Origin: Bdellovibrionales bacterium
Lineage (GTDB): Bacteria; Bdellovibrionota; UBA1018; CAIMNF01
Assembly (NCBI GenBank): GCA_947462765.1
Contig: CANHQK010000001.1
Span: 10,580 to 74,579 of the forward strand
DNA length: 64,000 nt
Reading direction: 5' to 3'
Shown here: positions 1 to 12,600 of the stretch, one piece after another
Layout: every line of letters starts with the position of its first letter
Position numbering within the stretch: position 1 is the first letter of the stretch
Translations under genes and position numbers: made by a program
The notes under the pieces: generated by a model
Told to the model about the DNA's origin: nothing
The model's database searches: none
Seen by the model: only the letters and a program-made list of their open reading frames with translations

Positions 1-362
1 TCCGAGAGCGTGAACATCCCGTCCGCGGTGGTCTCGCCACATGCGATTCCAAGCTTCCGCTCGGCATAGCTCATCAGCTCATCCGCCCCCCTGAGACAGC
101 ACGCCACATTGGTGCAGATCCGGAGATGGTTTTTTCCGACCGGCTTCAGATTGTACATGGTGTAGAAGCTGGCAACCTCACGGATCTGGGCCTCATGCAC
201 ACCGATGTATGCGGCAATCTCTGCCAGGATTTCTGGAGGAAGCCAACCACACTCGGCCTGCGCCTGATGAAGTGCAGGGAGAATCAGTGCTTTTTTATTC
301 GGATATCTCGGCTCGAGATTCCTCATGGCATCATAAAACTTTTGAGTCAGCAGCTTTTCCAT
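1..362 (-). CDS. nuoE: NADH-quinone oxidoreductase subunit E (NuoE, 24-kDa type), N-terminal part; the 3' end runs off the window
   Basis: Absent from the ORF track because there is no stop in the window. My translation of the minus strand from the ATG at 362..360 gives MEKLLTQKFYDAMRNLEPRYPNKKALILPALHQAQAECGWLPPEILAEIAAYIGVHEAQIREVASFYTMYNLKPVGKNHLRICTNVACCLRGADELMSYAE..., which looks like NuoE. The start forms an ATGA overlap with the nuoD stop, and the gene follows nuoABCD. Confidence 0.8.
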   Translation of the reverse strand, partial: MEKLLTQKFYDAMRNLEPRYPNKKALILPALHQAQAECGWLPPEILAEIAAYIGVHEAQIREVASFYTMYNLKPVGKNHLRICTNVACCLRGADELMSYAERKLGIACGETTADGMFTLS

Positions 363-1642
363 CAGCGATCCAGCTCCCCTGCGATGACATTGATGCTTCC
401 GAGCGCCGCGACCAGATCCGCGATGTATTCACCCCGGATCATCGGGTCGAGCCCCTGATAGTGCCAGAAGGAAGGTCCACGAATGCGCATGCGATGCGCG
501 GCGGGTCCGCCCTTGCTGACAATGTAAAAACCGAGCTCTCCATTCGCCGCCTCGAAAGAGGTGTAAGCCTCCCCCGCCGGAACATTGAACCCGGTCATGA
601 AAAATTTGAAGTGGTGAATCAACCCTTCCATCGTGTTGTAAACCTGGTCCTTCTCAGGAATGCGAGTTCTCTTGTCCTCGGACCAGATCGGCCCGCGCTT
701 GATGCGGTCCGCACACTGGGTGAGAATATTCAAGGATTGGCGCACCTCTTCGAGTCGGACATAATAACGATCGAACACGTCGCCGGTCTGGGCAACCGGC
801 ACATCAAAGTCCACCTGGTCGTAAAACATGCAGGGCTGGTCTCTGCGGAGATCAATATCCACACCGGCCGCGCGAGCGTTCGGTCCCGTGAAGCTGTACT
901 TGAGACAGTCTTCTCGATTCATAATGGCCACACCCTTGGTTCGTTTGAGCCAGATCCGGTTCTCGGTCAGGAGACGATCCATCTCGTCCACTACGGCGCG
1001 GGTTTCCTTGACCCAGTCTTTCACTTCCTTTTCCCAGCCTTCCGGGGCATCGGCCATCAGTCCGCCAATCCGGGTATAAGAAGTAGTGAGCCGGGCTCCG
1101 CAAAGTTTTTCGATCAGCGTGTAGGCTTTTTCGCGCTGGTGGTAACCGTAGAGAAAGTACGAAAATGCGCCCAAATCGACGGCGTTGATCCCCACGCAGA
1201 TCAGGTGATCGATCACGCGAGCGAGCTCGGCACACATCATCCGGATCCAGATCGCCCGCTCCGGGACTTCAATTCCCATCAAGCGCTCGACCGCCATGGC
1301 GTAAGTCACGTTATTGATCAGTGCCGAACAATAATTCAGGCGATCGGTGTACACCACAAACTGATGGTAAGTCCGGTTTTCACCGAGCTTTTCCTTGGCC
1401 CTGTGGGTATACCCGAATTCGCAGTAGGATTTTTCGATGATTTCCCCATTGAGCCTCGCCATACAGCGGAAGGCTCCGTGCATCGCCGGGTGGGTGGGAC
1501 CGATGTTAACCAGGACCTTTGAGTCCTCGAAAATGTCGTCCGTATCCCGCTTCACCGTGACATCGTATGTGGAGGGGATTCCCCATCTAGCAACGTCGAG
1601 GGGAAGGTCGGTTTTGAAGCTTTTCGGATTGGAATCACTCAT
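362..1642 (-). CDS. nuoD: NADH-quinone oxidoreductase subunit D (NuoD, 49-kDa)
   Basis: 426 aa. Motifs GPTHPAMHGAFR and YTDRLNYCSALINNVTYAMAVERL, with C-terminus INVIAGELDR. Position is after nuoC. Confidence 0.95.
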   Translation of the reverse strand: MSDSNPKSFKTDLPLDVARWGIPSTYDVTVKRDTDDIFEDSKVLVNIGPTHPAMHGAFRCMARLNGEIIEKSYCEFGYTHRAKEKLGENRTYHQFVVYTDRLNYCSALINNVTYAMAVERLMGIEVPERAIWIRMMCAELARVIDHLICVGINAVDLGAFSYFLYGYHQREKAYTLIEKLCGARLTTSYTRIGGLMADAPEGWEKEVKDWVKETRAVVDEMDRLLTENRIWLKRTKGVAIMNREDCLKYSFTGPNARAAGVDIDLRRDQPCMFYDQVDFDVPVAQTGDVFDRYYVRLEEVRQSLNILTQCADRIKRGPIWSEDKRTRIPEKDQVYNTMEGLIHHFKFFMTGFNVPAGEAYTSFEAANGELGFYIVSKGGPAAHRMRIRGPSFWHYQGLDPMIRGEYIADLVAALGSINVIAGELDR

Positions 1643-2202
1643 TTTAATAACTCCGGATCGAGAGGCTCGGGGGTCAGAAACACCTGATATCCCCTGAGCG
1701 GGTAGTCTTTTCTTAAGGGATGCCCCTCCCAGCGCATATCCATGAGGATCCTGCGCAAATCGGGGTGACCCTCAAATCGGATTCCGAACATGTCATAGAT
1801 CTCGCGCTCAGCCCAGTTGGCCCCTTCCCAGACCGGGATGAGCGTCGGAGAGGTTTCCTGGTCCGCAATGCGCACCTTCACTCTCAATCGGGCCTTGGTT
1901 GTGGGATTCATCAATTGAAGAACCAGGCGGAATCTCGGTTCCGACTCCTCGTCGGTTGCGGTGTAATCAGTCAGAAATGAAAAGCCCAATCCGTCCTTGA
2001 GGCGCCCGAGAACCGCCAGCATTCCGGATTTCCGCACATGAATCACCGGCACATCCGTCGCCGCCTCTCGCGGCATCAGGATCTCCTCGATGAACTCGGA
2101 AAAATCAACCCTCAGCGCTTCAATCACCGCAGTCCACTCGGTGAGATACTTGTCGTAATGTCCGCCATAGATGGTTTTGACCGGCGTGTTGATATCCATC
2201 AC
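1639..2202 (-). CDS. nuoC: NADH-quinone oxidoreductase subunit C (NuoC, 30-kDa)
   Basis: 187 aa with [29 protein letters not shown], typical of NuoC. 4-nt overlaps with nuoB and nuoD. Confidence 0.93.
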
Positions 2203-2699
2203 ACTTCTCCCCTCAGCGCCCGCTCACGTCGCTGGGAGTGAGTCTCTCCTTCCGCGATCATTTCTTTCAGGCGCAAAAGTGCGTTCAACAGACCCTCCGG
2301 GGCAGGCGGGCAGCCTGGAACATAGACATCCACCGGAACCACGGTATCGATCCCCTGGGTGACGCTGTAGACATTGAAGATCCCGCCCGAAGAGGCACAC
2401 GCCCCCATGGAGATCACCCACTTCGGATCAGCCATCTGGTCATAGATGTTGCGCAACACCGGGGCCATCTTGAGGTTCACGATCCCGGCGACAATCAGGA
2501 GATCGCTCTGCCTGGGCGAGAATCGAACCACCTCGGCACCGAATCGCGCCATGTCGTAACCGGAAGCCAGAGTCGACATGAGCTCGATCCCGCAACAACT
2601 GGTTCCGAAAGGAAGCGGAAACAGCGAGTGCTTCCGCGCCCAGTTGATCATGTCATCCAGCTTGGTCGTGAAAAAATCTGAAGATCCGTCCTTGCCCAT
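2199..2699 (-). CDS. nuoB: NADH-quinone oxidoreductase subunit B (NuoB, 20-kDa, N2 cluster)
   Basis: 166 aa. Motifs [20 protein letters not shown] and VPGCPPAPE give the four N2 cysteines, including the tandem CC. Confidence 0.95.
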
Positions 2700-2702
2700 G
2701 AT

Positions 2703-3065
2703 TTACTCCCACTCCAGTGCGCCACGACGGATGACATAAATGTATCCGACGAGAAGAATGAATACGAACACCATCATCTCGATGAGAATGAACTCGCCCG
2801 TGGTTAAGAACCGCTTGTAGACAACCGCCCACGGATAGAAAAACACCGTCTCGATGTCGAAGAGAAGAAAGAGGATGGCAACTAGGTAGAACCGGACCGA
2901 GACCCGGTGCTTTTTTGTCGGGCCGGATTCACCCACTCCGCACTCGATCGGAGAATCTTTTGTTTTGTTCGGAAGCTTCGGTCCGAGCCAGGTGGTGATG
3001 AGGAGGACGGCTCCGCCGATGCACACCCCTGCGGCCATCATGACCAGTACAGGAAGGTATTCCAT
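2703..3065 (-). CDS. nuoA: NADH-quinone oxidoreductase subunit A (NuoA)
   Basis: 120 aa with 3 TM segments and FDIETVFFYPWA. Lies directly upstream of nuoB. Confidence 0.85.
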   Translation of the reverse strand: MEYLPVLVMMAAGVCIGGAVLLITTWLGPKLPNKTKDSPIECGVGESGPTKKHRVSVRFYLVAILFLLFDIETVFFYPWAVVYKRFLTTGEFILIEMMVFVFILLVGYIYVIRRGALEWE

Positions 3066-3103
3066 ACACTTGTCCTTTCCTTGTGATTTTCTTTTTTAGA
3101 ACC

Positions 3104-4468
3104 TTACCACAAATTCAGGAGCGGGTGCTCTTTTAATAGGGAATAGAGGTCCGGGCGCAAGAGTGTCAAACCGATGACACAGAGAAGATAAAGCCCGATA
3201 AAGAAGACCTCACCCCGCTGGAGAGCGCGCAGTTCTTTCGCGCCGTTTCTCGCCAGAAGGACAGTTCCCATCATCCTGATCACCGCCAGCACCAGCGCGA
3301 ACCAAGAAACGATCATCAGGACGCCTGCGACCCAGTTTCCGCCAATGACGATGTCGTGGATCAACCGGTAGTATTGGTCGCCCAGCACAAGAGGCGGAAC
3401 CCCCATCAGTGCAATGAGGGCCCCCGTTATGAAGCCTTTCTTCCGGTAGTTCTCATCCAGGAAGGCATGTGATGCGAGCGCAACCGTCAGCAAGAGCGAA
3501 AGAGAGATCGAGAAAAATGCCGGGAGGATCTTATCGGCCGGTAGGAGACAAAGGAAGAAACCCAATCCAAGCAGGACCGGGAGCGCGGCACTGAACCACC
3601 GGTGATGCTCCTTTGCCCTGACCGCTTGATAAGCATAACGGAGCGTGAAGGCTCCGAACACGAGCGCGATCATCAATTGCGCCTGCTGTTTTCCGAGAAA
3701 AGCGGCCTTACTGAAAAAAGGCACGCCCACCCTGAGCCAAAAAACCTGGATCATCAGGTGCATTCCAAAGTAGAGCACCCCGAGACCCACCGGAGCCCGC
3801 CCCGGATGCGGTAGAGCCTCCAGCAGAATCACAGACCCCAACAGAATCAGAATCGCGGGAAGCCAGACCCCGGCCTCGGTTCCAGAATAGGATTCGAGTC
3901 CGCTCAGCCAATCCCCGAGCAACTGTGAGCCCGAGAGAAAACTGGAGAGGACAACCAACAAGGACAATACTGCGATCCAGCTTCCGAAGATCATGCTTCT
4001 CGAGCGAATGAGACGGACCCAAGCCTGGCTTTTTCCTGATTCAATCAGAATGAGGCTGGTGGAACAAAAATAAATTCCGACCGCGGCACCGAGAAACAGC
4101 ACCAAGTGGTTTGCTTGAAGCAGAAGGGAAACGAAGGCGGAGAGGAAGAGCGTGAACAAGGTGGTCAGTTGCTTGTCGCGCACACTCAGCTCACTGTGAA
4201 AATAAAAGCCCATTGAAAAAACGGAGAACATGACCAAAGACAAGAGACGGCCGAAATAGGACAGGGCATCAGAGTGAAGAACCTTGACGGGCGATTCGAA
4301 ATAGGCCAGATCGGGCCGGAAAGCGAAATACCCGAGAACAATCGCCGACGACAACGCGGCAACGGGCGCAATGGATCTCACGGTCAGGACCCTAAAGTTA
4401 ATCAGGACCAACGTCACAAACAGCATTCCAAGAATAGCCAACTCCGGCAACCAATTGAGCATCGTCAC
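3104..4468 (-). CDS. Polytopic membrane protein, divergent NuoN/antiporter-like subunit of the complex-I-like module
   Basis: 454 aa with about 13-14 hydrophobic segments. The N-terminus HSDALSYFGRLLSLVMF resembles NuoN. LPHPGRAPVG sits where antiporter-like subunits carry H-W-x-P-D-x-x-x-G-A-P. 4-nt overlap with the upstream gene. Confidence 0.6.
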   Translation of the reverse strand: MTMLNWLPELAILGMLFVTLVLINFRVLTVRSIAPVAALSSAIVLGYFAFRPDLAYFESPVKVLHSDALSYFGRLLSLVMFSVFSMGFYFHSELSVRDKQLTTLFTLFLSAFVSLLLQANHLVLFLGAAVGIYFCSTSLILIESGKSQAWVRLIRSRSMIFGSWIAVLSLLVVLSSFLSGSQLLGDWLSGLESYSGTEAGVWLPAILILLGSVILLEALPHPGRAPVGLGVLYFGMHLMIQVFWLRVGVPFFSKAAFLGKQQAQLMIALVFGAFTLRYAYQAVRAKEHHRWFSAALPVLLGLGFFLCLLPADKILPAFFSISLSLLLTVALASHAFLDENYRKKGFITGALIALMGVPPLVLGDQYYRLIHDIVIGGNWVAGVLMIVSWFALVLAVIRMMGTVLLARNGAKELRALQRGEVFFIGLYLLCVIGLTLLRPDLYSLLKEHPLLNLW

Positions 4469-5448
4469 TTAGCACCTCCGAGAAGGAAGAACCCGACACC
4501 CGCGGCAGCCTGGACCAGCACCACCAGCAAAAAGCGAATCCGCGTGGTCCGACCGGGAGCCGAAAGACCATACCCGGGAAGCGCCACGAGCGTGACCACC
4601 TGGAGCAGGAACCCTGCGAGAAGTGCCGCGATCCAGACCGGATTCATGGAAATCGCCATCTTCATCGAAAAAAAGTACGCGGTGAAACCGGCCATTCCGG
4701 GCAATGCCACCACGGCTACTCGCGAGAATGCACTGAACCGCTCGCCCATCTGGTCTCCCAACGAGAGCAATGCCGCGCCACCGATCGCAGCAACTGAAAG
4801 GGCCCAAAGAGTGGTACGCCCGAGGACATCCTGGTCGATCACCAGGATGAAGAGAGCCAGGCCCAACTGCGCGAGGGCCAGGTGCATGATGGACGACTTC
4901 ATCCTCAGTCGCAAGGTCGACATCAGGCTGCCGTAAAGATAGGTGAACAACCCAACGAAAGAAAGTGCAACGTCCCAGAGCTGGCCGTTTTCCGCCTTCA
5001 TTTCACTCCGGATCTTGAGGAGGATCTCGATCCCTGAAAGGGCTGGAATGATGACCGACCCGAGGAACGAAGCCAGGGTCTGGCGTTCATAGAGCCTGCT
5101 GAAGAAGAAGAGGTGCGCACCGGTTGGGATGGACAGCAACAATCCCGAAAAGATCAGGAGGGTGGCCTGGGGGTGCTCTCCCAGGGAGGCGCCGAATATG
5201 GCAACGAAAATGCCTGCGATTGAAATGAAGTGGTGCTTCTGGACAATCGGATGATCGGCCCGCCTCGAGCCACGGGTGGACTGGAGAAATCCGATCATTT
5301 GCAGGGTCAGCAGGAACAGCAGACTGACCGGCACCGACTTGGAAAAGAAAATCGCGGCCGCAAAGGGAACCGAGAGCCAGCTTGCCGGGGGCAGGCAAGG
5401 CAACCAGGAAAGCGCCACCAATGCCGAGGGAAGGCTGAATTCCAGCAT
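4465..5448 (-). CDS. Polytopic membrane protein, truncated NuoM/NuoL-like (antiporter-like) subunit
   Basis: 327 aa and hydrophobic throughout. KSSIMHLALAQLGLALF resembles the conserved K..AYSSi.HmG segment, and LPGMAGFTAYFFSMKMAI resembles the P.l.GF.sKf segment of Mrp/NuoLMN-type subunits. Confidence 0.5.
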   Translation of the reverse strand: MLEFSLPSALVALSWLPCLPPASWLSVPFAAAIFFSKSVPVSLLFLLTLQMIGFLQSTRGSRRADHPIVQKHHFISIAGIFVAIFGASLGEHPQATLLIFSGLLLSIPTGAHLFFFSRLYERQTLASFLGSVIIPALSGIEILLKIRSEMKAENGQLWDVALSFVGLFTYLYGSLMSTLRLRMKSSIMHLALAQLGLALFILVIDQDVLGRTTLWALSVAAIGGAALLSLGDQMGERFSAFSRVAVVALPGMAGFTAYFFSMKMAISMNPVWIAALLAGFLLQVVTLVALPGYGLSAPGRTTRIRFLLVVLVQAAAGVGFFLLGGAK

Positions 5449-5451
5449 GAA

Positions 5452-6294
5452 TCAAAGCCCTCCCTTAATTGCCAGCATGAACAATCCGAAAAATGCCAAA
5501 GCACCAGAAACCAGATAGAAAACCCTGTCCAGTGCCGATCCGGGAGTGGGAACCGCATAAACCGGTTCCTCACCACCCCATGCCCGCCGTCCGTCGACCA
5601 AGCGGGCGCCGAAAGTGAGTGCCCGAAGACCGCTGGTTCGGAAAGCGACCAGACTGCGGCGGAAGCTATCGAGGCGCCACTTCGTCCACGCAAATAGCGC
5701 GGCCGCAACAAACAAGAGGGCGGAACCGAGGGCGATCACCATGTTGTTCTCCGACCACCTTTCGAACTCCCCTGAGAAGCCCTGTAAAATAGTGGCCACG
5801 CCAACGAGCTCGAGAATGGTGAGCACCCGCTCCTCGTTTTCCGACTTGAACCATCTGAAAGATTCCGCCGCAACCCAATAAATGCCGGCCGCAACGAGAG
5901 CGATTTCCGGGCGTTCAGGCTGCGGATAGTACTGGCGATACAACAAGAGCGCAGGGAGTATCCCCAGAAACCCCTTCCCGAAACTCAGGGAAACCAAGAG
6001 CACCCCGATGAAGGCGAAGAACTCTCCGAAAGGAGCGGGAGATATGGCCCCTCCCATGATGAGGAATATCCCCAGAAAGTCCTTCAGCTGGACCCAGGTT
6101 TCGGCCTTCCGATCGATGCGGTGCCAGATCATGAGCCCCGCCACCAAGGCGGCCACCATAGGCCCGTGCAAAAGGGATCCGAGGATGACCATCACAAAAG
6201 GAAGTGCGCGCCTCTCTCGAATGAGTCCTACGGCACTGAACAGGAAAAAAAGGATCGTGGTCTGGTCGGGCTGACTGAGTTCAAGATTCATCAT
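5452..6294 (-). CDS. Polytopic membrane protein of unknown function (complex-I-like module)
   Basis: The ORF track gives 5452..6336. I prefer the internal MMNLELSQ start at 6294 or 6291 because it reduces overlap with the upstream gene. About 8 hydrophobic segments and no motif I recognise. Confidence 0.55.
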   Translation of the reverse strand: MMNLELSQPDQTTILFFLFSAVGLIRERRALPFVMVILGSLLHGPMVAALVAGLMIWHRIDRKAETWVQLKDFLGIFLIMGGAISPAPFGEFFAFIGVLLVSLSFGKGFLGILPALLLYRQYYPQPERPEIALVAAGIYWVAAESFRWFKSENEERVLTILELVGVATILQGFSGEFERWSENNMVIALGSALLFVAAALFAWTKWRLDSFRRSLVAFRTSGLRALTFGARLVDGRRAWGGEEPVYAVPTPGSALDRVFYLVSGALAFFGLFMLAIKGGL

Positions 6295-6523
6295 TTTCGA
6301 GTTGAACCTCCCCACGCGAAACCGCCAGTAGCGCAATCGACAGAACGGCGAACAACATCACCGCTCCAGGCAGAAGTGGAATCGACGACTCCCGCGAGGA
6401 CACCACCCCCAGCAAGGAGAGTGAAACCCTCAGCATGGCACCCGAAAACTCCAGAACATCAGATGCGGTGAAGAGCGTGTAGAGCGAAAAAACCAGGAAA
6501 AATAAAAATGCAGCCGCTATCAT
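6281..6523 (-). CDS. Small 3-TM membrane protein in the NuoK position
   Basis: 80 aa and hydrophobic (MIAAAFLFFLVFSLYTLF...LEFSGAMLRVSLSLLGVV...). ATGA overlap with the upstream gene. The NuoK-like assignment rests on position and size only. Confidence 0.45.
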   Translation of the reverse strand: MIAAAFLFFLVFSLYTLFTASDVLEFSGAMLRVSLSLLGVVSSRESSIPLLPGAVMLFAVLSIALLAVSRGEVQLENDES

Positions 6524-6870
6524 CGTTTCCTCTTTTCAACGGCCAAACCGACCATCATCGCTGCAGAAAGCAGGGAGATCAGGATCACCACCGGAAGGAA
6601 GTGGCTGTACTCGATCTCGGCCGGACCCTGGCCGGAGGAGTCCTGGATCATCGGAAACAGTGTCGCAGAAAGAGCCAAAGACAGAGCCAGGGCACGAACA
6701 CGCCTTCCCGCCGGAAGACTCTCGGACCCACCTCCGAGCAGCAACCGCATACGGAAAAGCTGAATCCGGATCAGCAAGCCGAGGACCAGAACCACCACCC
6801 CCGAGAAAGGGGAGCGGGTTGCCACAAAGCCCGAAACCATCAAAAGGAAAATCAGATCGAAAACCCTCAT
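6520..6870 (-). CDS. Small membrane protein in the NuoJ position
   Basis: The ORF track extends to 7074, but the Arg/Cys-rich N-terminal part overlaps the NuoI-like gene. The internal start MRVFDLIFLLMVSGF at 6870 forms an ATGA overlap with the NuoI-like stop. 116 aa, 3 TM. Confidence 0.5.
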   Translation of the reverse strand: MRVFDLIFLLMVSGFVATRSPFSGVVVLVLGLLIRIQLFRMRLLLGGGSESLPAGRRVRALALSLALSATLFPMIQDSSGQGPAEIEYSHFLPVVILISLLSAAMMVGLAVEKRKR

Positions 6871-7277
6871 GTGAGCTCTCCCCTGCCGAAGCTCATCTTG
6901 AGGTCTTTGGGATCGAACACGGCCGCTTGCACTTCTTTGGTTTGAATGAGGGAGTTCGGCTCGCAGACCTCGACACACAAGCCGCAAAAGACACACTTGG
7001 AAAAATCGATTTCGAAACGCGATACCCAAGGGCGATTGTTGCGTGCATTGACACTCGCTTCGACCTCGATGCAAGACGACGGGCAGACCCGTGCACAGTC
7101 ACCGCAACCCGTGCATTTTTCGATCTCATTGAAGAGCAAGCCCCGGGCCCGCGCAGGAAAGTCGTCTTTCCCACGAGACGAAACCGGGTCCGGATAGAAC
7201 TCGGTATCGATCTTGCGCATCTCGTTCTGATTCAGGAAGTGTCCGACGATCTTCTTAAACATGGGGACCCCCTCCAA
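6867..7277 (-). CDS. NuoI-like 2x[4Fe-4S] ferredoxin subunit
   Basis: 136 aa with two CxxCxxCxxxCP-type motifs: CTGCGDCARVCP and CVFCGLCVEVCE. An alternative start MFKKIV lies at 7262. Confidence 0.85.
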   Translation of the reverse strand: MEGVPMFKKIVGHFLNQNEMRKIDTEFYPDPVSSRGKDDFPARARGLLFNEIEKCTGCGDCARVCPSSCIEVEASVNARNNRPWVSRFEIDFSKCVFCGLCVEVCEPNSLIQTKEVQAAVFDPKDLKMSFGRGELT

Positions 7278-8061
7278 TTACGCCGAACCAAAGCATGGCC
7301 ATGAGCCAGAGCGCTCCCGTGATGGGAAACAGATAAATGATCGAGATTCTGAGCAAGTCCTTCTGATGGAATCCGGGAAAATAGATTCCGAAAATTCTCG
7401 ACCCCAGGTACAAGACCGCCGCCTTAAAATGAATATCGAAGAACCACTCTCCCCCACCCAGAAACAGCTTGGCAGTGAGCAAGGACCACACATAGAAGCG
7501 GGCCGACGGCAACCAGCCGCTTTTCTCGCTCATTCCCCGGAACGGATGCTCCCCGAACAGGATCATTCCGCACAGCTGAAACGGGATGACAAAGGCCAAG
7601 AGGACCGGACTCCAGACAACTCCACTCATGTCCGTGGTCCGGGAGCAGGTGAAGCACACGAACAGACACAGGAGCGCAATGGCCCCCGCAATTGAAAAGC
7701 GGACCTGTTGTCCATCCGCACGGATCCTGGACACCACGCTTTGGGTTCCCAAGGACATCCAAACCAACAGGAAACCGATCAAGGCGATATAAATGAACAT
7801 CAGGTATTCGACCCGGATCCCCAACAGGAACACCATCGATAACTGGAAGAGATAGAGTAGCCAGGTGCCGGGTTCGGTCTGCGTCCTCAACTCCATCCTG
7901 GCGTCGACCCAGGTCTGCCAGATAAATCCGACCCATCCGACCTGCTTCCCGACCCGGGATTCATGTCGGGCAATCATCCGTTCGCTGATCGCATACATCA
8001 GGAAGGAAACCGGGAAAACCGAAGCCAATCCGGAAATCATCACCAGCAACGCCTCGATCAT
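7255..8061 (-). CDS. NuoH-like (HycD/EchB-type) membrane subunit, short form
   Basis: 268 aa. AISERMIARHESRVGKQ matches the NuoH aERk..a..Q.R.GP segment. FGEHPFRG sits where NuoH has the E..PFD loop. About 7-8 TM. Confidence 0.75.
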   Translation of the reverse strand: MIEALLVMISGLASVFPVSFLMYAISERMIARHESRVGKQVGWVGFIWQTWVDARMELRTQTEPGTWLLYLFQLSMVFLLGIRVEYLMFIYIALIGFLLVWMSLGTQSVVSRIRADGQQVRFSIAGAIALLCLFVCFTCSRTTDMSGVVWSPVLLAFVIPFQLCGMILFGEHPFRGMSEKSGWLPSARFYVWSLLTAKLFLGGGEWFFDIHFKAAVLYLGSRIFGIYFPGFHQKDLLRISIIYLFPITGALWLMAMLWFGVIGGGPHV

Positions 8062-9065
8062 CGGTCGATCTCCGAGATAGAAAATGAAAGACTCTCTAGA
8101 ACGACCGCCAGATCCTCGAGAGACTCGCCCTCCAGCGCCGGTCCGATTGATTTTACAATCGAAGAAGAGGGCGAACGCAATTCAAGTTCGGTGACAGCAC
8201 CCTCAGAGTCGAGGCCCAAAGCGATACCCCAGGCGCCCCGTAAAGTGTCTCGCTCGTGTGAGATTCGCCCCGCCTTCGAGACGAAAGCGCCGAAGTATTC
8301 TCCTTTGGGTCCCCGTCTCAACAGTTCCTGCATTTCACCCGCCATCTCCCTGCAGTTTTGCAGGGAATAGATGAGGCGCGACTCCACATGACTGACGAAT
8401 CCATACCGCGTGCTTTCAATCGAGGCCTCGCTGACAAAGCCGAACTCACCTCGGTCGAGGACCTGCCCGAGGTTTCGCATGCGGTTCTGGAAAACATGCG
8501 TCCACCGGAAGAGCGCCTCGATCCTCGGAAAATCCTCTACGAAATTCCTGCTCCAGGTGTCCAGACGCTCCTGGAAGCCCTCAGTGATGTCATACCTGGC
8601 ACCCCCGGGAATCAAGTAGTAGTAACCGTACCGGGACCCCGACAACAACTCGAGAAGATCAAGCAAGGACTCGCGGTGCTTCAAGATCGAGTGAAACAGG
8701 ATTTTCACCCCGAGCCGCCTCGACATGTTGGCCAGGTACTTGAGCTGGAAGTTCAGCTCTGAAAGACTCGTGGTGATGTCACGGATCCAGCGAATCCGGT
8801 CGCCAGCCTCGACTCCGGAGATCTTCTCGACCGCTTCACTGAAGACCCGATCCAAAAGGAGCGCACTCTCGGGCTCCACCCGACCGACAGTGAGCTGGGC
8901 TCGCCGGTGATGCTGTCCAAGGGCCTTTTTCTCGATCTCACGTGACGCATAACCGAATCTCGCGTCCACGCTGATGATCCGATCACCACTCATGCCCAAG
9001 CTGAGCTTCATCGGGCCGGGAAGCCACTCGTGGATCGGCCCGATTTCGATCGTCTCCTGGATCAT
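8058..9065 (-). CDS. NuoD/[NiFe]-hydrogenase-large-subunit-like protein lacking metal-ligand cysteines
   Basis: 335 aa. IGPIHEWLPGP aligns to GPTHPAMHG of the canonical NuoD. GRVEPESALLLDRVFSEAVEKI aligns to DRLNYCSALINNVTYAMAVERL. The C-terminus SFSISEIDR aligns to AGELDR of NuoD and to DPCxxCxDR of hydrogenases. There is no Cys at either [NiFe] motif. Confidence 0.75.
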   Translation of the reverse strand: MIQETIEIGPIHEWLPGPMKLSLGMSGDRIISVDARFGYASREIEKKALGQHHRRAQLTVGRVEPESALLLDRVFSEAVEKISGVEAGDRIRWIRDITTSLSELNFQLKYLANMSRRLGVKILFHSILKHRESLLDLLELLSGSRYGYYYLIPGGARYDITEGFQERLDTWSRNFVEDFPRIEALFRWTHVFQNRMRNLGQVLDRGEFGFVSEASIESTRYGFVSHVESRLIYSLQNCREMAGEMQELLRRGPKGEYFGAFVSKAGRISHERDTLRGAWGIALGLDSEGAVTELELRSPSSSIVKSIGPALEGESLEDLAVVLESLSFSISEIDR

Positions 9066-9439
9066 GTCTGAACCTCGCGGAGCGACAGGATCCCGTTCAT
9101 GATCGCTTCAGGACGGGGAGGGCAGCCCGTGACATAAATATTGACGGGAAGTCGCGGGTCTCCGGGAGTCGGGAACAATCCTCCCCCGCAAGCACAAGTT
9201 CCGATCGCGATCACATACTTGGGTGACCTCATCCGGTCAAAATGGGCAACCGCCTCTTCGAACAGCACCCGGTTGAGCGTTCCCTGGACCACCAGCAGGT
9301 TGGCATCCTCCGCGTGTTCCGACGCGACACACCCGAGCCGCTCCAGATCGTACCGGCTGGATTCGGTCTGGATCCAATCATCTCCGCAACAGGTGAGACC
9401 CACCCGCACGTATTTCAGTGTGGGCTTAAACTTCGTCAT
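9062..9439 (-). CDS. NuoB-like small subunit with a complete [4Fe-4S] cysteine set
   Basis: 125 aa. Motifs GLTCCGDDW (tandem CC), IGTCACGGG and VTGCPPRPE. 4-nt overlap with the NuoD-like gene. Confidence 0.85.
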   Translation of the reverse strand: MTKFKPTLKYVRVGLTCCGDDWIQTESSRYDLERLGCVASEHAEDANLLVVQGTLNRVLFEEAVAHFDRMRSPKYVIAIGTCACGGGLFPTPGDPRLPVNIYVTGCPPRPEAIMNGILSLREVQT

Positions 9440-9650
9440 CTGCGTCCTTTTTGAGGTAATGTTGGGTCGCCAGAAAGAATGACAAAAACACTACCATCAT
9501 CACGAGAATCGCGATTAAATACGGGATGATCCTGATCTCGCTCGAGATGAATAGAGGGAGTGCCACCAATAGGGGGATCCACAGGTAAAGTATGACCTGC
9601 GTAAGCTGTGTCGTCTTGATTTCAAAGGGCAAAATCTTCCTAGGATCCAT
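9426..9650 (-). CDS. Small 2-TM membrane protein, first gene of the complex-I-like module
   Basis: 74 aa with two hydrophobic spans (VILYLWIPLLVALPLFI and IIPYLIAILVMMVVFLSFFLA) and an acidic tail. 14-nt overlap with the NuoB-like gene. Confidence 0.5.
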   Translation of the reverse strand: MDPRKILPFEIKTTQLTQVILYLWIPLLVALPLFISSEIRIIPYLIAILVMMVVFLSFFLATQHYLKKDADDEV

Positions 9651-9691
9651 GGATTCATGAAAAGGCTAATTGAAGGTGAAGGGGTGAGTCA

Positions 9692-12600
9692 ATGCCTGCC
9701 GGTCCGAGCGAGATAAATTTATCGCCACTTCTCGCAAGAGCCGCCGCCGCCTGGTTCGCGACCCCTGGTGCGGACACCCGCATCCAGGTTCATCTTTTTC
9801 CTGAACAGGAACGGGCGGACGAGTTCGCCGACCTTCTGCGTAGCTTTGCCGAGGCCGACCCCCGAGGTGATCGTGTCGAGATCGCCATGTGGACCGCTTC
9901 GGAGCACGCGCCATTCTCGCCGGTCTCCCCCTCTTTGTCCCAGCGGACCGCTCGGCTCAGGACTCTCGCCCTGCTCCACTCTTCCCCGCACAAGGTCATC
10001 CTGATCGGAACCGCTGGGTCCTGGCTCCAGCCGACTCTTCCCGCCCAAGTGCGTGCCGAGTCGAAGCTGGTGCTCGAATGCGATCGTGACTCTGGTACAC
10101 GCGACGCACTCCGCTCCAAAATGAGGGCACTCGGATATGTTCCATCAGATCTGGTACAAGAGCCCGGACAATTCGCGTTCCGTGGCGAGATTCTCGATTT
10201 TTTCCCACCCGAGAACGAGCGCCCTTTCAGAGTGGGGTTCTTCGATACCGTCCCTGAAAGCATCCGGGTTTTCCATCCTGAAACCCAAAGAACCCTGGCT
10301 GAGCCGGCTGGACTCTTGCGAATCGAGGCCGGTCCGGCGGAGGAGGCCCTTCTGCCGTGGGGTCGGATCGAGCCGGTGCTCGAGCGAATCAAGGAATACT
10401 GTGACCACCATCAGATTTCGAGGAAGATCCGGGATCCGGTGTTCGAGAATATCAGGGCCGGTTTCATGCCGGACCACGCCAGGACCTGGATCCCGTTTCT
10501 CTACGGAGCGACTGCCGGCCTGAGCGATCACCTGCCTGAGAATGCTCCGGTTTACATCCATGAGCGGCAACGCTTCGAATCCTCATTTAATGAGCATCTG
10601 GCTTGGCTGAAGAAAGAGGAGGCTCGCTACACTGAGCGCCACTGGATCACCCCCGACTTCGGAATGCTGTATCCGCGCGCGGAATCTAAAATCGAAGAAC
10701 TGCGTCATCGAGCGATAGATCCGAGGGCGGAAGTTCTGGACCCCCTGGAAAATCCTCGAGTCGGAGAGCAGGAGATTCTCGAGTGGCTCGATGACGGTTT
10801 TTCCGTATGGATCGGAAGCCGGGGCCCCTCTCACCAGGACCGGATCCGGCATCATCTGAAGCAGGCCACCCGCCATCCCGGTCTCCGACTGCTCTCATCC
10901 GATCCCGAGGAATCGGGGGTGTTTCCGGTCAGGAAAACGGTGGTGCTCTCCGAACGTGCGATTTTCGCAGGGGAGAGTGGAGGAAAAACCGCCTCGAAGG
11001 CCCGCCATCCCAAATTCGAGAAGAACCCGGCCCTCGCCTTTCAACGGCTTGAGGATCTCGCTCCTGGCGACCTGGTCGTCCATTCACTCCACGGGGTCGG
11101 ACGGTACCTCGGCATGCAGGAGCTTCGGTCAGGCGCTCAAGGCTCCGGTGAATACCTGCTGATCGAATACGCCTCGGGTGACAAACTTTATCTGCCGGTT
11201 TACCGCCTCAACAACATCCAGCGCCATGCCGCAGGCGGAGCGAGCGGAGGACTCGACCGTCTCGGAAGCGGTCAGTTCGATCGGGCCAAACAAAAAGCTC
11301 GTGAATCCGCGAGGAAACTTGCGATCAACCTGGTCGAGATCTACGCCAAGAGAGCCTTATTGAAGGGTCCTCGCTTCGACCCCCCTTCGGACGACTATTT
11401 CAGCTTTTGCGAAAAGTTCGAGTTCCAGGAAACCGATGGTCAAATGAATGCGGTCCGGGACATCCTTCACGATCTCGAGTCGGCCAAATTACTCGACCGC
11501 CTGGTGTGCGGGGATGTGGGCTTCGGCAAGACCGAGGTCGCTATCCGTGCCGCCTTTCAGGCCGTTCAAAACGGGTACCAGGTCGCGGTCCTGGTTCCCA
11601 CCACCTTGCTCGCATTCCAACACGAACAATCCTTCAAAAACCGGATGCGTGACTTCGCGGTACGAATCGAGTCGATCTCCAGGTTCAAGACCCGGACGAT
11701 CCAGAACACCCTTTTGAAGGAACTGCAGGATGGTAAAATCGATATTTTGATCGGCACACATCGACTGCTTTCGAAAGATGTTCGCTGGTCGAATCTCGGC
11801 CTATTGATCGTTGATGAGGAACACCGCTTCGGAGTCGAACACAAGGAAAAGATCAAGGCCATCCAGGCCGATACGCACACCCTCACTCTGACCGCGACCC
11901 CGATTCCGCGAACGCTCAACATGGCTCTTTCGGGACTGAAAGACATCAGCGTCATCCAATCTCCGCCAACCAACAGGCAGCCGATCCAGACCCATGTTTC
12001 CGCTTGGTCCCCGGAACTGGTGAAGAACGCCATCGAGACCGAGCTCGCGCGCGGTGGACAGGTTTTTTATCTGCACAACAAGGTTCAAAGTATTCAGCAC
12101 CATGCCAACGAGATCCAGAAGCTGGTCCCGTCCTGCAAGGTGATTGTCGCCCACGGCCAGATGTCCGAGACCGAAATCGAAGAAAAAATGCTCGAGTTCT
12201 ACCGCGGGCAGGCCCAGGTGCTCGTCTGCACCACCATCATTGAGTCTGGAATCGACGTCCCGAACGCCGGGACCATTCTGATCGATCGGGCCGATCAACT
12301 CGGCCTGGCCCAACTCTATCAGATCCGGGGAAGGGTAGGCCGGAGCCACAGGCGCGCTCATGCATACCTACTGGTCAGAGAAGAGGGGGCGCTCACCGAC
12401 GAGGCCAAACAACGCCTCGATGCACTCCAACGCTTTGTCGAGCTGGGCAGCGGTTTTCAAATCGCCTCACTCGATCTCGAGATCCGTGGTGGAGGAAACG
12501 TACTCGGAGGAGAGCAATCCGGGCACATCGCCTCGATCGGGCTCGATCTTTACACGGAGATGCTCGAGGAAGCGATTCAGGAGCTACGAGGCAAGAAGAT

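Follow-up and report, generated by a model that had tools for sequence, protein, structure and literature searches.

Ten coupled genes between mfd and nuoA

We analyzed a 64,000-nucleotide stretch of the genome of a Bdellovibrionales bacterium (hereafter the window; positions 10,580 to 74,579 of contig CANHQK010000001.1, assembly GCA_947462765.1), in which ten minus-strand open reading frames (ORFs), E1 to E10, span positions 9650 to 3104 directly upstream of the canonical nuoA gene. As the initial annotation of the window had described, these ORFs are tightly coupled: the five 4-nt overlaps, at 9062–9065, 8058–8061, 6867–6870, 6520–6523 and 4465–4468, are all exact, and a 38-nt gap separates the end of E10 (3104) from the start of nuoA (3065). 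At the other junctions, E1 and E2 overlap by 14 nt, E4 and E5 by 8 nt (ATG at 7262) and E7 and E8 by 14 nt (ATG at 6294), while E8 and E9 are spaced by 3 nt. The module encodes 2,189 residues in ten subunits and holds no further ORFs. It contains no NuoC, NuoE/F/G or hyp gene, as the initial annotation had noted and as the ORFs, Pfam matches and motif positions bear out; in particular, there is no ORF between E2 and E3, which overlap by 4 nt, and no PF00329 match in the module.

The ten proteins were searched against Pfam and NCBIfam and compared profile to profile with hhalign, and their folds were examined using AlphaFold2 models and Foldseek. Only E2, E3 and E5 were recognized by Pfam and NCBIfam, all three under the NCBIfam trusted cut-offs, in agreement with their initial designation as NuoB-, NuoD- and NuoI-like. 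E2 (9062–9439) is an N-terminally truncated NuoB-like protein of 125 amino acids (aa) that matched Oxidored_q6 (PF01058; 2.5e-17) and NCBIfam NuoB (6.4e-31) and is 37% identical to the organism's own NuoB. E3 (8058–9065; 335 aa) is NuoD-like with two internal deletions; Complex1_49kDa (PF00346; 3.5e-18) matched its N-terminal ~200 aa only, and the top PDB match of the E3 family profile was Nqo4 (1.3e-46), aligned at residue level. E5 (6867–7262; 131 aa from the ATG at 7262) is a NuoI-like 2x[4Fe-4S] ferredoxin that matched NCBIfam NuoI (6e-20) and the Pfam Fer4 families. It is the most conserved module protein and is 52% identical to I', its counterpart in the full-size relatives of the module described below, the subunits of which are marked by primed letters.

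The seven membrane proteins had no significant match in Pfam or NCBIfam, apart from a marginal one of E9 to PF00361. For E4 (7255–8061; 268 aa, about six transmembrane [TM] helices) there was no Pfam match, and a search of the PDB with a hidden Markov model of the E4 family was also empty. Profile-profile comparison alone succeeded, with full-length hhalign alignments to NuoH at 96.3% (E 1.5e-9) and 95.7%, so that the NuoH-like designation is upheld by hhalign and not by Pfam. E4 keeps the NuoH signature motifs ERxxA..RVG, Q..D, E.PF and LFLGG. In addition, jackhmmer seeded with the full-size H' recovered the E4 orthologue of locus L015, and E4–H' was the sole link found by BLAST and phmmer between the L015 proteins and the full-size subunits.

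The last three genes had been read as polytopic proteins with residual antiporter motifs, apparently split or degenerate. E9 (4465–5448; 327 aa, about 9–10 TM helices) matched PF00361 at E=0.022, and 2 of 10 family members had a match to it (best 1.8e-5); the best hhalign partner of E9 was M' (77%, E 2e-5), and it retains a DLKRxxAYSxxxQxG-like motif, RMKSSIMHLALAQLG. These similarities point, more weakly than those of E4, to a shrunken NuoM-like antiporter-type subunit. E10 (3104–4468; 454 aa, about 14 TM helices) had no sequence-family match. Its AlphaFold2 model, built from an 8-sequence alignment (predicted local distance difference test [pLDDT] 62, predicted template modeling score 0.68), gave full-length Foldseek matches to ND2, NuoN, NdhB, MrpD and NuoL (E 5.6e-6, template modeling score 0.65–0.70), and its best hhalign partner was N' (54%), collinear over the full length, consistent with a NuoN-like antiporter-type subunit with remodeled charged residues. 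Thus, E9 and E10 each best matched their own positional counterpart. E8 (5452–6294; about 7 TM helices) is placed at the NuoL position by position only: it had no hhalign profile match, its top local match (to L' 517–544) had a probability of 0.6%, and its AlphaFold2 model (pLDDT 58) had no fold match. Its initially reported length of 294 aa corresponds to the longest TTG ORF, whereas gene calls and homologues back 280 aa. In summary, antiporter remnants are found in E9, by sequence, and in E10, by fold and hhalign, and none is detectable in E8; the module does not encode a PF00361 trio with the TM5 Glu/TM7 Lys/TM12 Lys-Glu relay, and the subunits appear shrunken and remodeled instead of split. 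It is only a speculation that the long helix of E8 (residues 184–230) and its last TM helix are a remnant of the NuoL lateral helix. A resemblance of E8 to HlyIII/PAQR proteins was judged not meaningful, as the Pfam match was sub-threshold, under the gathering score, in 4 of 13 members and lacked the His motifs.

The three small proteins, E1 (9426–9650; 74 aa, 2 TM helices), E6 (6520–6870; 116 aa, 3–4 TM helices) and E7 (6281–6523; 80 aa, 3 TM helices), had no profile matches to NuoA, NuoJ and NuoK, respectively, and were placed by position. For E6 and E7, the positions given in the initial annotation are right, without profile support: E6, which ends in a conserved E(K/R)R(K/R)R, had no match to J' or any other subunit, and in a weak alignment both NuoK glutamates are without a counterpart in E7. 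A', J' and K' are recognizable in the full-size relatives. E1, without a family match in Pfam and NCBIfam, is the first gene in every locus, and the first gene of the full-size relatives is NuoA-like (hhalign 92.9%); the resemblance of E1 itself to NuoA is local (IRIIPYLIAIL versus VRFYLVAILF). E1 is therefore probably a truncated NuoA, most likely not the extra small TM protein for which it had been taken. By position and, where detectable, homology, E1 to E10 correspond to A', B', D', H', I', J', K', L', M' and N'.

Simple scans for promoter and terminator consensus sequences gave no match at the two module ends. Aligning the loci brought out a promoter-like element, TTGACTCACCCCTTC, at 9678–9692 on the minus strand, with a −35-like TTGACT that overlaps the mfd start codon and TAGCCT about 17 nt downstream, at the spacing of a −10 box. 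The 15-nt element (TTGACTCNCCCNTTC; 9678–9692, minus strand) occurs once in the window and in 0 of 100 shuffles; it is present as a single, invariant copy just upstream of E1 in all 24 of the 24 reduced-type loci and in 0 full-size-type loci. It is probably the module promoter, an operator or both, shared with the divergent mfd. The 38-nt spacer between E10 and nuoA (3066–3103) carries a ribosome-binding site, AAGGAAAGGA, and no terminator-like or promoter-like site. Across the family, the spacer measures 20–47 nt and only the stop-proximal TAAGGT and the GAAAGGA ribosome-binding site are conserved. Since the spacer lacks a terminator-like site and the upstream element precedes E1, a single operon from E1 through nuoN, as suggested in the initial annotation, is plausible.

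The canonical nuoA gene (2703–3065) is followed by nuoB, nuoC and nuoD (together 362–3065, minus strand; ORFs and Pfam matches), and the operon runs past the window. Contigs of the same organism carry the complete canonical A-B-C-D-E-F-G-H-I-J-K-L-M-N operon, giving one array of 24 complex-I-type genes (ten of the module plus nuoA-N). Upstream of the module, mfd is divergent, with its start codon 41 nt from that of E1. No hyp gene was found among the immediate neighbors, out to uvrA on one side and through the canonical nuoA-N on the other. Neither an Rfam nor a tRNA scan of the window gave a match. At positions 4001–8000, a strong positive plus-strand AT skew (0.27–0.34) is explained by the T-rich codons of the minus-strand membrane proteins, and the GC content is in line with that of the flanks, which gives no sign of recent transfer.

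Full-size relatives and the reduction of the module

The module belongs to a family found in 11 species in one-genome-per-species data, all of them metagenome-assembled genomes (MAGs) labeled Bdellovibrionales, Oligoflexia, 'Bdellovibrio sp. ZAP7' or unclassified Proteobacteria. The close cluster representatives of E3 numbered about 47, all of 299–342 aa, and the next relatives stood at only 30% identity. In every locus that was long enough, including the 11 species representatives and further metagenome contigs, a divergent mfd was followed by E1–E10 and nuoA-B-C-D. The module is thus syntenic, with all genes intact, in every Bdellovibrionota/Oligoflexia MAG that carries it, which is the conservation in related genomes that the initial annotation had proposed to check.

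The slot between mfd and nuoA is occupied in other metagenomic and MAG contigs by a larger set of genes in the order A'-B'-C'-D'-H'-I'-J'-K'-L'-M'-N'. The complete order was seen in L040, L047, L049 and L050; L042 is truncated upstream and shows C'-N' only. In these full-size loci (L040, L042, L047/L048, L049 and L050) the flanks are PGM-pdxA-surA-surA-mfd on one side and nuoA-B-C-D on the other, as in the reduced loci. L' is distantly NuoL-like (81%), and the subunits other than A' and L' match their own Pfam families. The lengths are 133–149 aa for A', 346–380 for D', 335–362 for H', 634–655 for L', ~490–510 for M' and ~470–495 for N'. NuoI' of L049 (about 12070–12590) was missed by the stored gene calls; it has an unbroken frame in which both cluster motifs are retained, so that NuoI' is present in every inspected locus covering that position.

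The full-size D' and E3 have in common the derived motifs LPGPM and DPE as well as two derived prolines, Pro38 and Pro87 (His38Pro and Tyr87Pro). Together with the shared slot and flanks, these motifs indicate that the module of the window is a further-reduced descendant of a paralogue with the gene order of 11-subunit (Nuo11-type) enzymes. The window version has lost NuoC and has shorter counterparts of A, H, J, K, L and M, bringing the total to 2,189 residues versus about 3,330 in the full-size form, a reduction of about 34%. The deepest reduced-type branch, L015, is intermediate, with an E4 of 311 aa, an E6 of 150 aa and an E8 of 461 aa. We conclude that the ten genes are very probably a lineage-specific, strongly reduced paralogue of an 11-subunit complex-I-like enzyme, from which NuoC has been lost.

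In an exhaustive profile search, the wider family proved to be large and highly divergent: dozens of 50%-identity clusters fell, by score, between the E3 subfamily on the one hand and canonical NuoD or NiFe large subunits on the other. One member, L051 (4818–14046), is a stand-alone full-size A'-B'-D'-H'-I'-J'-K'-L'-M'-N' set without NuoC, beside neither mfd nor nuoA, and demonstrates that members of the family need not lie next to nuo. Since its NuoD' falls outside the reduced subfamily in a rough neighbor-joining tree, NuoC may have been lost more than once. In that tree, which lacked curated Ehr (energy-converting-hydrogenase-related) references and was too star-like to root the family, the family formed its own long-branched block, apart from NiFe and canonical NuoD sequences. 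Another locus, L046 (682–1815), encodes a NuoD/hydrogenase large-subunit-like protein that pairs the family GPYHPALPGPMR motif with NiFe-type cysteines (CGCC...; DLCMAC) and, judging from this combination, could be a link between the module family and group 4 hydrogenases.

Purifying selection and the residues kept and replaced

No frameshift or internal stop was present in any of more than 20 loci. Ratios of nonsynonymous to synonymous substitution rates (dN/dS), computed for close pairs, were about 0.02–0.11 across all ten genes, indicating purifying selection; for comparison, mfd and nuoC had values of 0.04–0.06, and nuoB and nuoD of 0.01. Among single genes, dN/dS was 0.02–0.04 for E1, 0.007–0.02 for E5 and 0.05–0.12 for E6, and E5, followed by E2, was the slowest-evolving module protein. 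Gene lengths are nearly invariant across the family and translational coupling is preserved; the E10 alignment is gap-free over 454 columns down to 46% identity, with exactly 454 aa in the 8 aligned members. Although the module evolves faster than canonical nuo, E8–E10 being 36–38% identical where NuoB and NuoD are 88–95% identical, it is clearly maintained. Together with the synteny, the dN/dS values show that the arrangement is no product of chance.

The iron–sulfur (Fe-S) cluster ligands are strictly conserved. The four N2-type cysteines (CC...C...GCPP) were present in 20 of 20 E2 family members, and all 8 cysteines of the two CxxCxxCxxxC motifs in 15 of 15 E5 members. The opposite was seen in E3 for the ligands of the quinone head group in Thermus thermophilus Nqo4, His38, Tyr87 and Asp139 (Nqo4 numbering), as judged from the alignment of E3 with Nqo4. 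The His38 and Tyr87 positions are both Pro in every aligned E3, and the Asp139 position is Arg in most members and Ala in L014. Both prolines are also found in the full-size D' of L040–L042. As expected from the initial annotation, E3 has no NiFe cysteines at the L1 and L2 CxxC positions.

Residues of the proton-pumping relay were compared in six full-size relatives, including L050 and L051. In M', the TM5 Glu is replaced by G, A or S in all six, the TM7 Lys by Arg in five (Lys is retained in L051) and the TM12 Glu by H, G or Q in five (Glu is retained in L050). In N', the TM5 Glu is replaced by Q or L and the TM7 Lys by Q, L or F. In K', the place of Glu36 is taken by Gln in five relatives and by Tyr in L050, and Glu72 has given way to Gln or a different residue. 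The organism's own canonical NuoL, NuoM, NuoN and NuoK, examined as a control, retain every pump residue. The relay positions also appear changed in E9 and E10, in alignments of low confidence.

Two further observations concern the sequences used for comparison. Loci L017–L022 and L027, from Armatimonadota, Zipacnadia and Clostridiales MAGs and also retrieved by the pattern scan, are true clusters of group 4 [NiFe]-hydrogenases (ERVCGICS...DPCFSCTDR) that include NuoB/C/H/I-like and antiporter-like genes, and served as comparators that retain the pump residues. The canonical NuoG of the same organism (L052, 13026–14444) has 472 aa, with only a weak Molybdopterin-domain match left; NuoG proteins are usually 700–900 aa long.

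A proposed remodeled complex and its alternatives

The closest known kind of enzyme is the 11-subunit complex-I-like enzyme (Nuo11/NDH-1) of cyanobacteria, Chlorobi and Desulfitobacterium (PMC3144371, PMC11238625). The full-size relatives share its nuo order without NuoE/F/G, which is kept, minus C, in the window, and the set includes a NuoB with tandem-Cys N2 ligands, a two-cluster NuoI, a NuoH and antiporter-like M and N subunits. By contrast with these enzymes, the quinone ligands His38, Tyr87 and Asp139 are replaced in the module, as are, in the full-size relatives, the proton-relay Glu and Lys of M', N' and K'. The window version lacks NuoC, has shrunken or unrecognizable counterparts of A, H, J, K, L and M, and forms a tandem with a complete nuo operon of 14 genes. 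A precedent for membrane-arm paralogues repurposed beyond standard proton pumping is provided by the cyanobacterial NDH-1MS complexes, which are NDH-1 variants with paralogous antiporter-like subunits (PMC6358722); however, only NdhD and NdhF are swapped there onto a shared core, whereas the module is a whole second core and arm in reduced form. A search of the literature found no published description of the module family and no matching described system, as the initial annotation had anticipated. A conserved 'nuoAHJKLMN' cluster, mentioned for all Bdellovibrionota in a 2026 Peredibacter genome paper (PMC13147790), might be related to the module.

Taking the data as a whole, we lean towards the explanation that the module is a reduced Nuo11-type paralogue working as a remodeled Fe-S membrane complex. 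Its working mode can be proposed only tentatively. The module proteins would assemble into a small L-shaped membrane complex, in which a peripheral arm of B', D' and I', still holding a three-[4Fe-4S] wire, would sit on the NuoH-like heel and be joined to a short, remodeled membrane arm. As in other 11-subunit enzymes, a soluble low-potential donor would deliver electrons to the NuoI-like subunit, from which they would pass to the N2-type cluster. At the B'/D'/H' junction, in a pocket where Pro/Pro/Arg stand in place of His/Tyr/Asp, they would then reduce a non-canonical acceptor or a quinone with a different mode of binding. The canonical Glu/Lys proton-pumping relay would not be used and, judging from the residue replacements, the complex probably does not pump by the canonical route. 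Expression would start from the promoter-like element upstream of E1, probably as one transcript with nuoA-N, which would tie module dosage to complex I.

Several points weigh against this explanation. E1, E6, E7 and E8 are assigned by position only, and E8 could be unrelated to NuoL. Loss of the pump residues is demonstrated in the full-size relatives, and the case for E9 and E10 depends on low-confidence alignments. E10 also has invariant charged residues, E143, R155, R246, R277, R284 and K344, some of them in predicted helices, so that a different ion path is possible. The loop motifs of NuoH take part in coupling in complex I, and since they are kept in E4, some coupling could survive. Finally, the Fe-S clusters might have a structural or sensory role instead of a catalytic one, and the assembly and activity of the complex are deduced from sequences and predicted folds.

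The main rival explanation, which we consider rather unlikely, is a pseudoenzyme partner: an inert complex-I-like body that would serve as a scaffold, assembly aid or regulator of canonical complex I, and that might bind it laterally or sense the redox state via its Fe-S clusters. It would account for the loss of catalytic residues (the quinone ligands and, in the relatives, the pump Glu and Lys) from a fold that is kept under purifying selection, and for the fact that in this lineage the module always adjoins nuoA-N, with which it is probably co-transcribed. However, the strict conservation of all twelve Fe-S cysteines and the fact that E5 evolves slowest fit electron transfer better than a pure scaffold, and L051, standing alone away from nuo, argues against an obligate partnership; neither point is decisive. 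The same loss of catalytic residues, together with the faster evolution than canonical nuo and the progressive size reduction, might also be expected of a decaying relic, a dying duplicate kept only through its location in the nuo transcription unit. This reading is already disfavored and hardly credible, given the dN/dS values, the intact frames in more than 20 loci, the gap-free, length-invariant alignments and the preserved translational coupling. The plausible common transcription unit and the absence of a NuoC and an input module of its own would also suit a third possibility, namely that the E proteins swap for their canonical counterparts to form an alternative complex I with the canonical NuoC/E/F/G. 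We regard such an exchange of isoforms as very improbable: the E proteins are just 28–37% identical to canonical B and D, E8 and E9 are far too short for the NuoL and NuoM positions, and NuoC is also lost in the stand-alone L051, which has no adjacent nuo operon.

The Ehr/Mbx-type label of the initial annotation implied another origin, an ion-translocating oxidoreductase that descends from a hydrogenase and takes electrons from ferredoxin or the like. Like Ehr, the module has a large subunit that belongs to the complex I superfamily and lacks the NiFe-binding cysteines, and neither has a known electron-input partner or function; like Mbx/Mbs of Pyrococcus furiosus (PDB 6u8y), it is a non-hydrogenase, non-quinone member of the superfamily, with acceptor chemistry that would take place at a remodeled pocket beside the proximal cluster. 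A hydrogenase-like sequence with NiFe cysteines, L046, has the LPGPM motif, and among PDB chains MbsL matches the full-size D' strongly (204 bits), within the range of the complex I chains (Nqo4 240 bits, NdhH 238), true hydrogenases scoring lower (MbhL 140, HycE 108). On the other hand, Ehr of Geobacter (G. sulfurreducens GSU0739-45) is an Ech-like set, EhrA/B/C/D/L/S with a HyfE-like subunit (PMC7894505), and has been reported to group with the group 4f hydrogenases (PMC10284858), whereas the module derives from a nuoA-N-ordered set with A', I', J', K' and three antiporter-like genes, and complex I gives its NuoD' a better score than MBH or FHL does. Mbs differs by its Mrp-type module with small Mnh-like subunits and its archaeal mbx gene order; no Mnh or Mbh small-subunit Pfam match was found among the ten proteins at E<=1, and none of the four cluster cysteines is missing from E2. 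Among solved structures, the full-size relatives match Nqo4/NdhH, NdhA, NuoK, NuoM and NdhB best by sequence, and the canonical ion-transfer residues of these relatives are replaced. We therefore no longer retain the label and give little credence to this origin. Nor is the module a group 4 [NiFe]-hydrogenase, the L1/L2 CxxC motifs being absent from E3 and hyp genes from the module and its immediate neighbors.

The module is a real, conserved new variant within the complex I superfamily. How electron transfer is coupled to proton pumping in complex I is still debated, and the family is a natural variant in which residues invoked in that debate are replaced (E to Q, K to R or Q, His and Tyr to Pro). 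It may reveal which parts of the chassis serve assembly and which catalysis, whether other chemistry can run on the chassis and whether whole-complex pseudoenzymes exist. If the remodeled redox complex is real, it would be a new enzyme on the complex I chassis, with a different acceptor and no canonical pumping; if the module is a pseudoenzyme, it would be the first whole-complex pseudoenzyme partner of complex I. Because annotation pipelines name only 3 of the 10 genes, complex I would be miscounted in respiratory reconstructions of Bdellovibrionota MAGs. Experiments may be feasible if an isolate of Bdellovibrio sp. ZAP7, to which one member MAG is assigned, carries the module. For specialists, the surprise lies in a complex I paralogue that is under selection despite its replaced catalytic and relay residues, and that also exists in a miniaturized form. 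In one freshwater clade, which includes the MAG assigned to Bdellovibrio sp. ZAP7, it has been miniaturized by about a third and has lost NuoC, still in tandem with nuoA-N. Judging from these residues, Bdellovibrionota may possess an undescribed family of complex I paralogues that keeps the Fe-S wire and the architecture without the canonical quinone ligands and proton relay, and that would act as a new redox enzyme or as a whole-complex pseudoenzyme partner.

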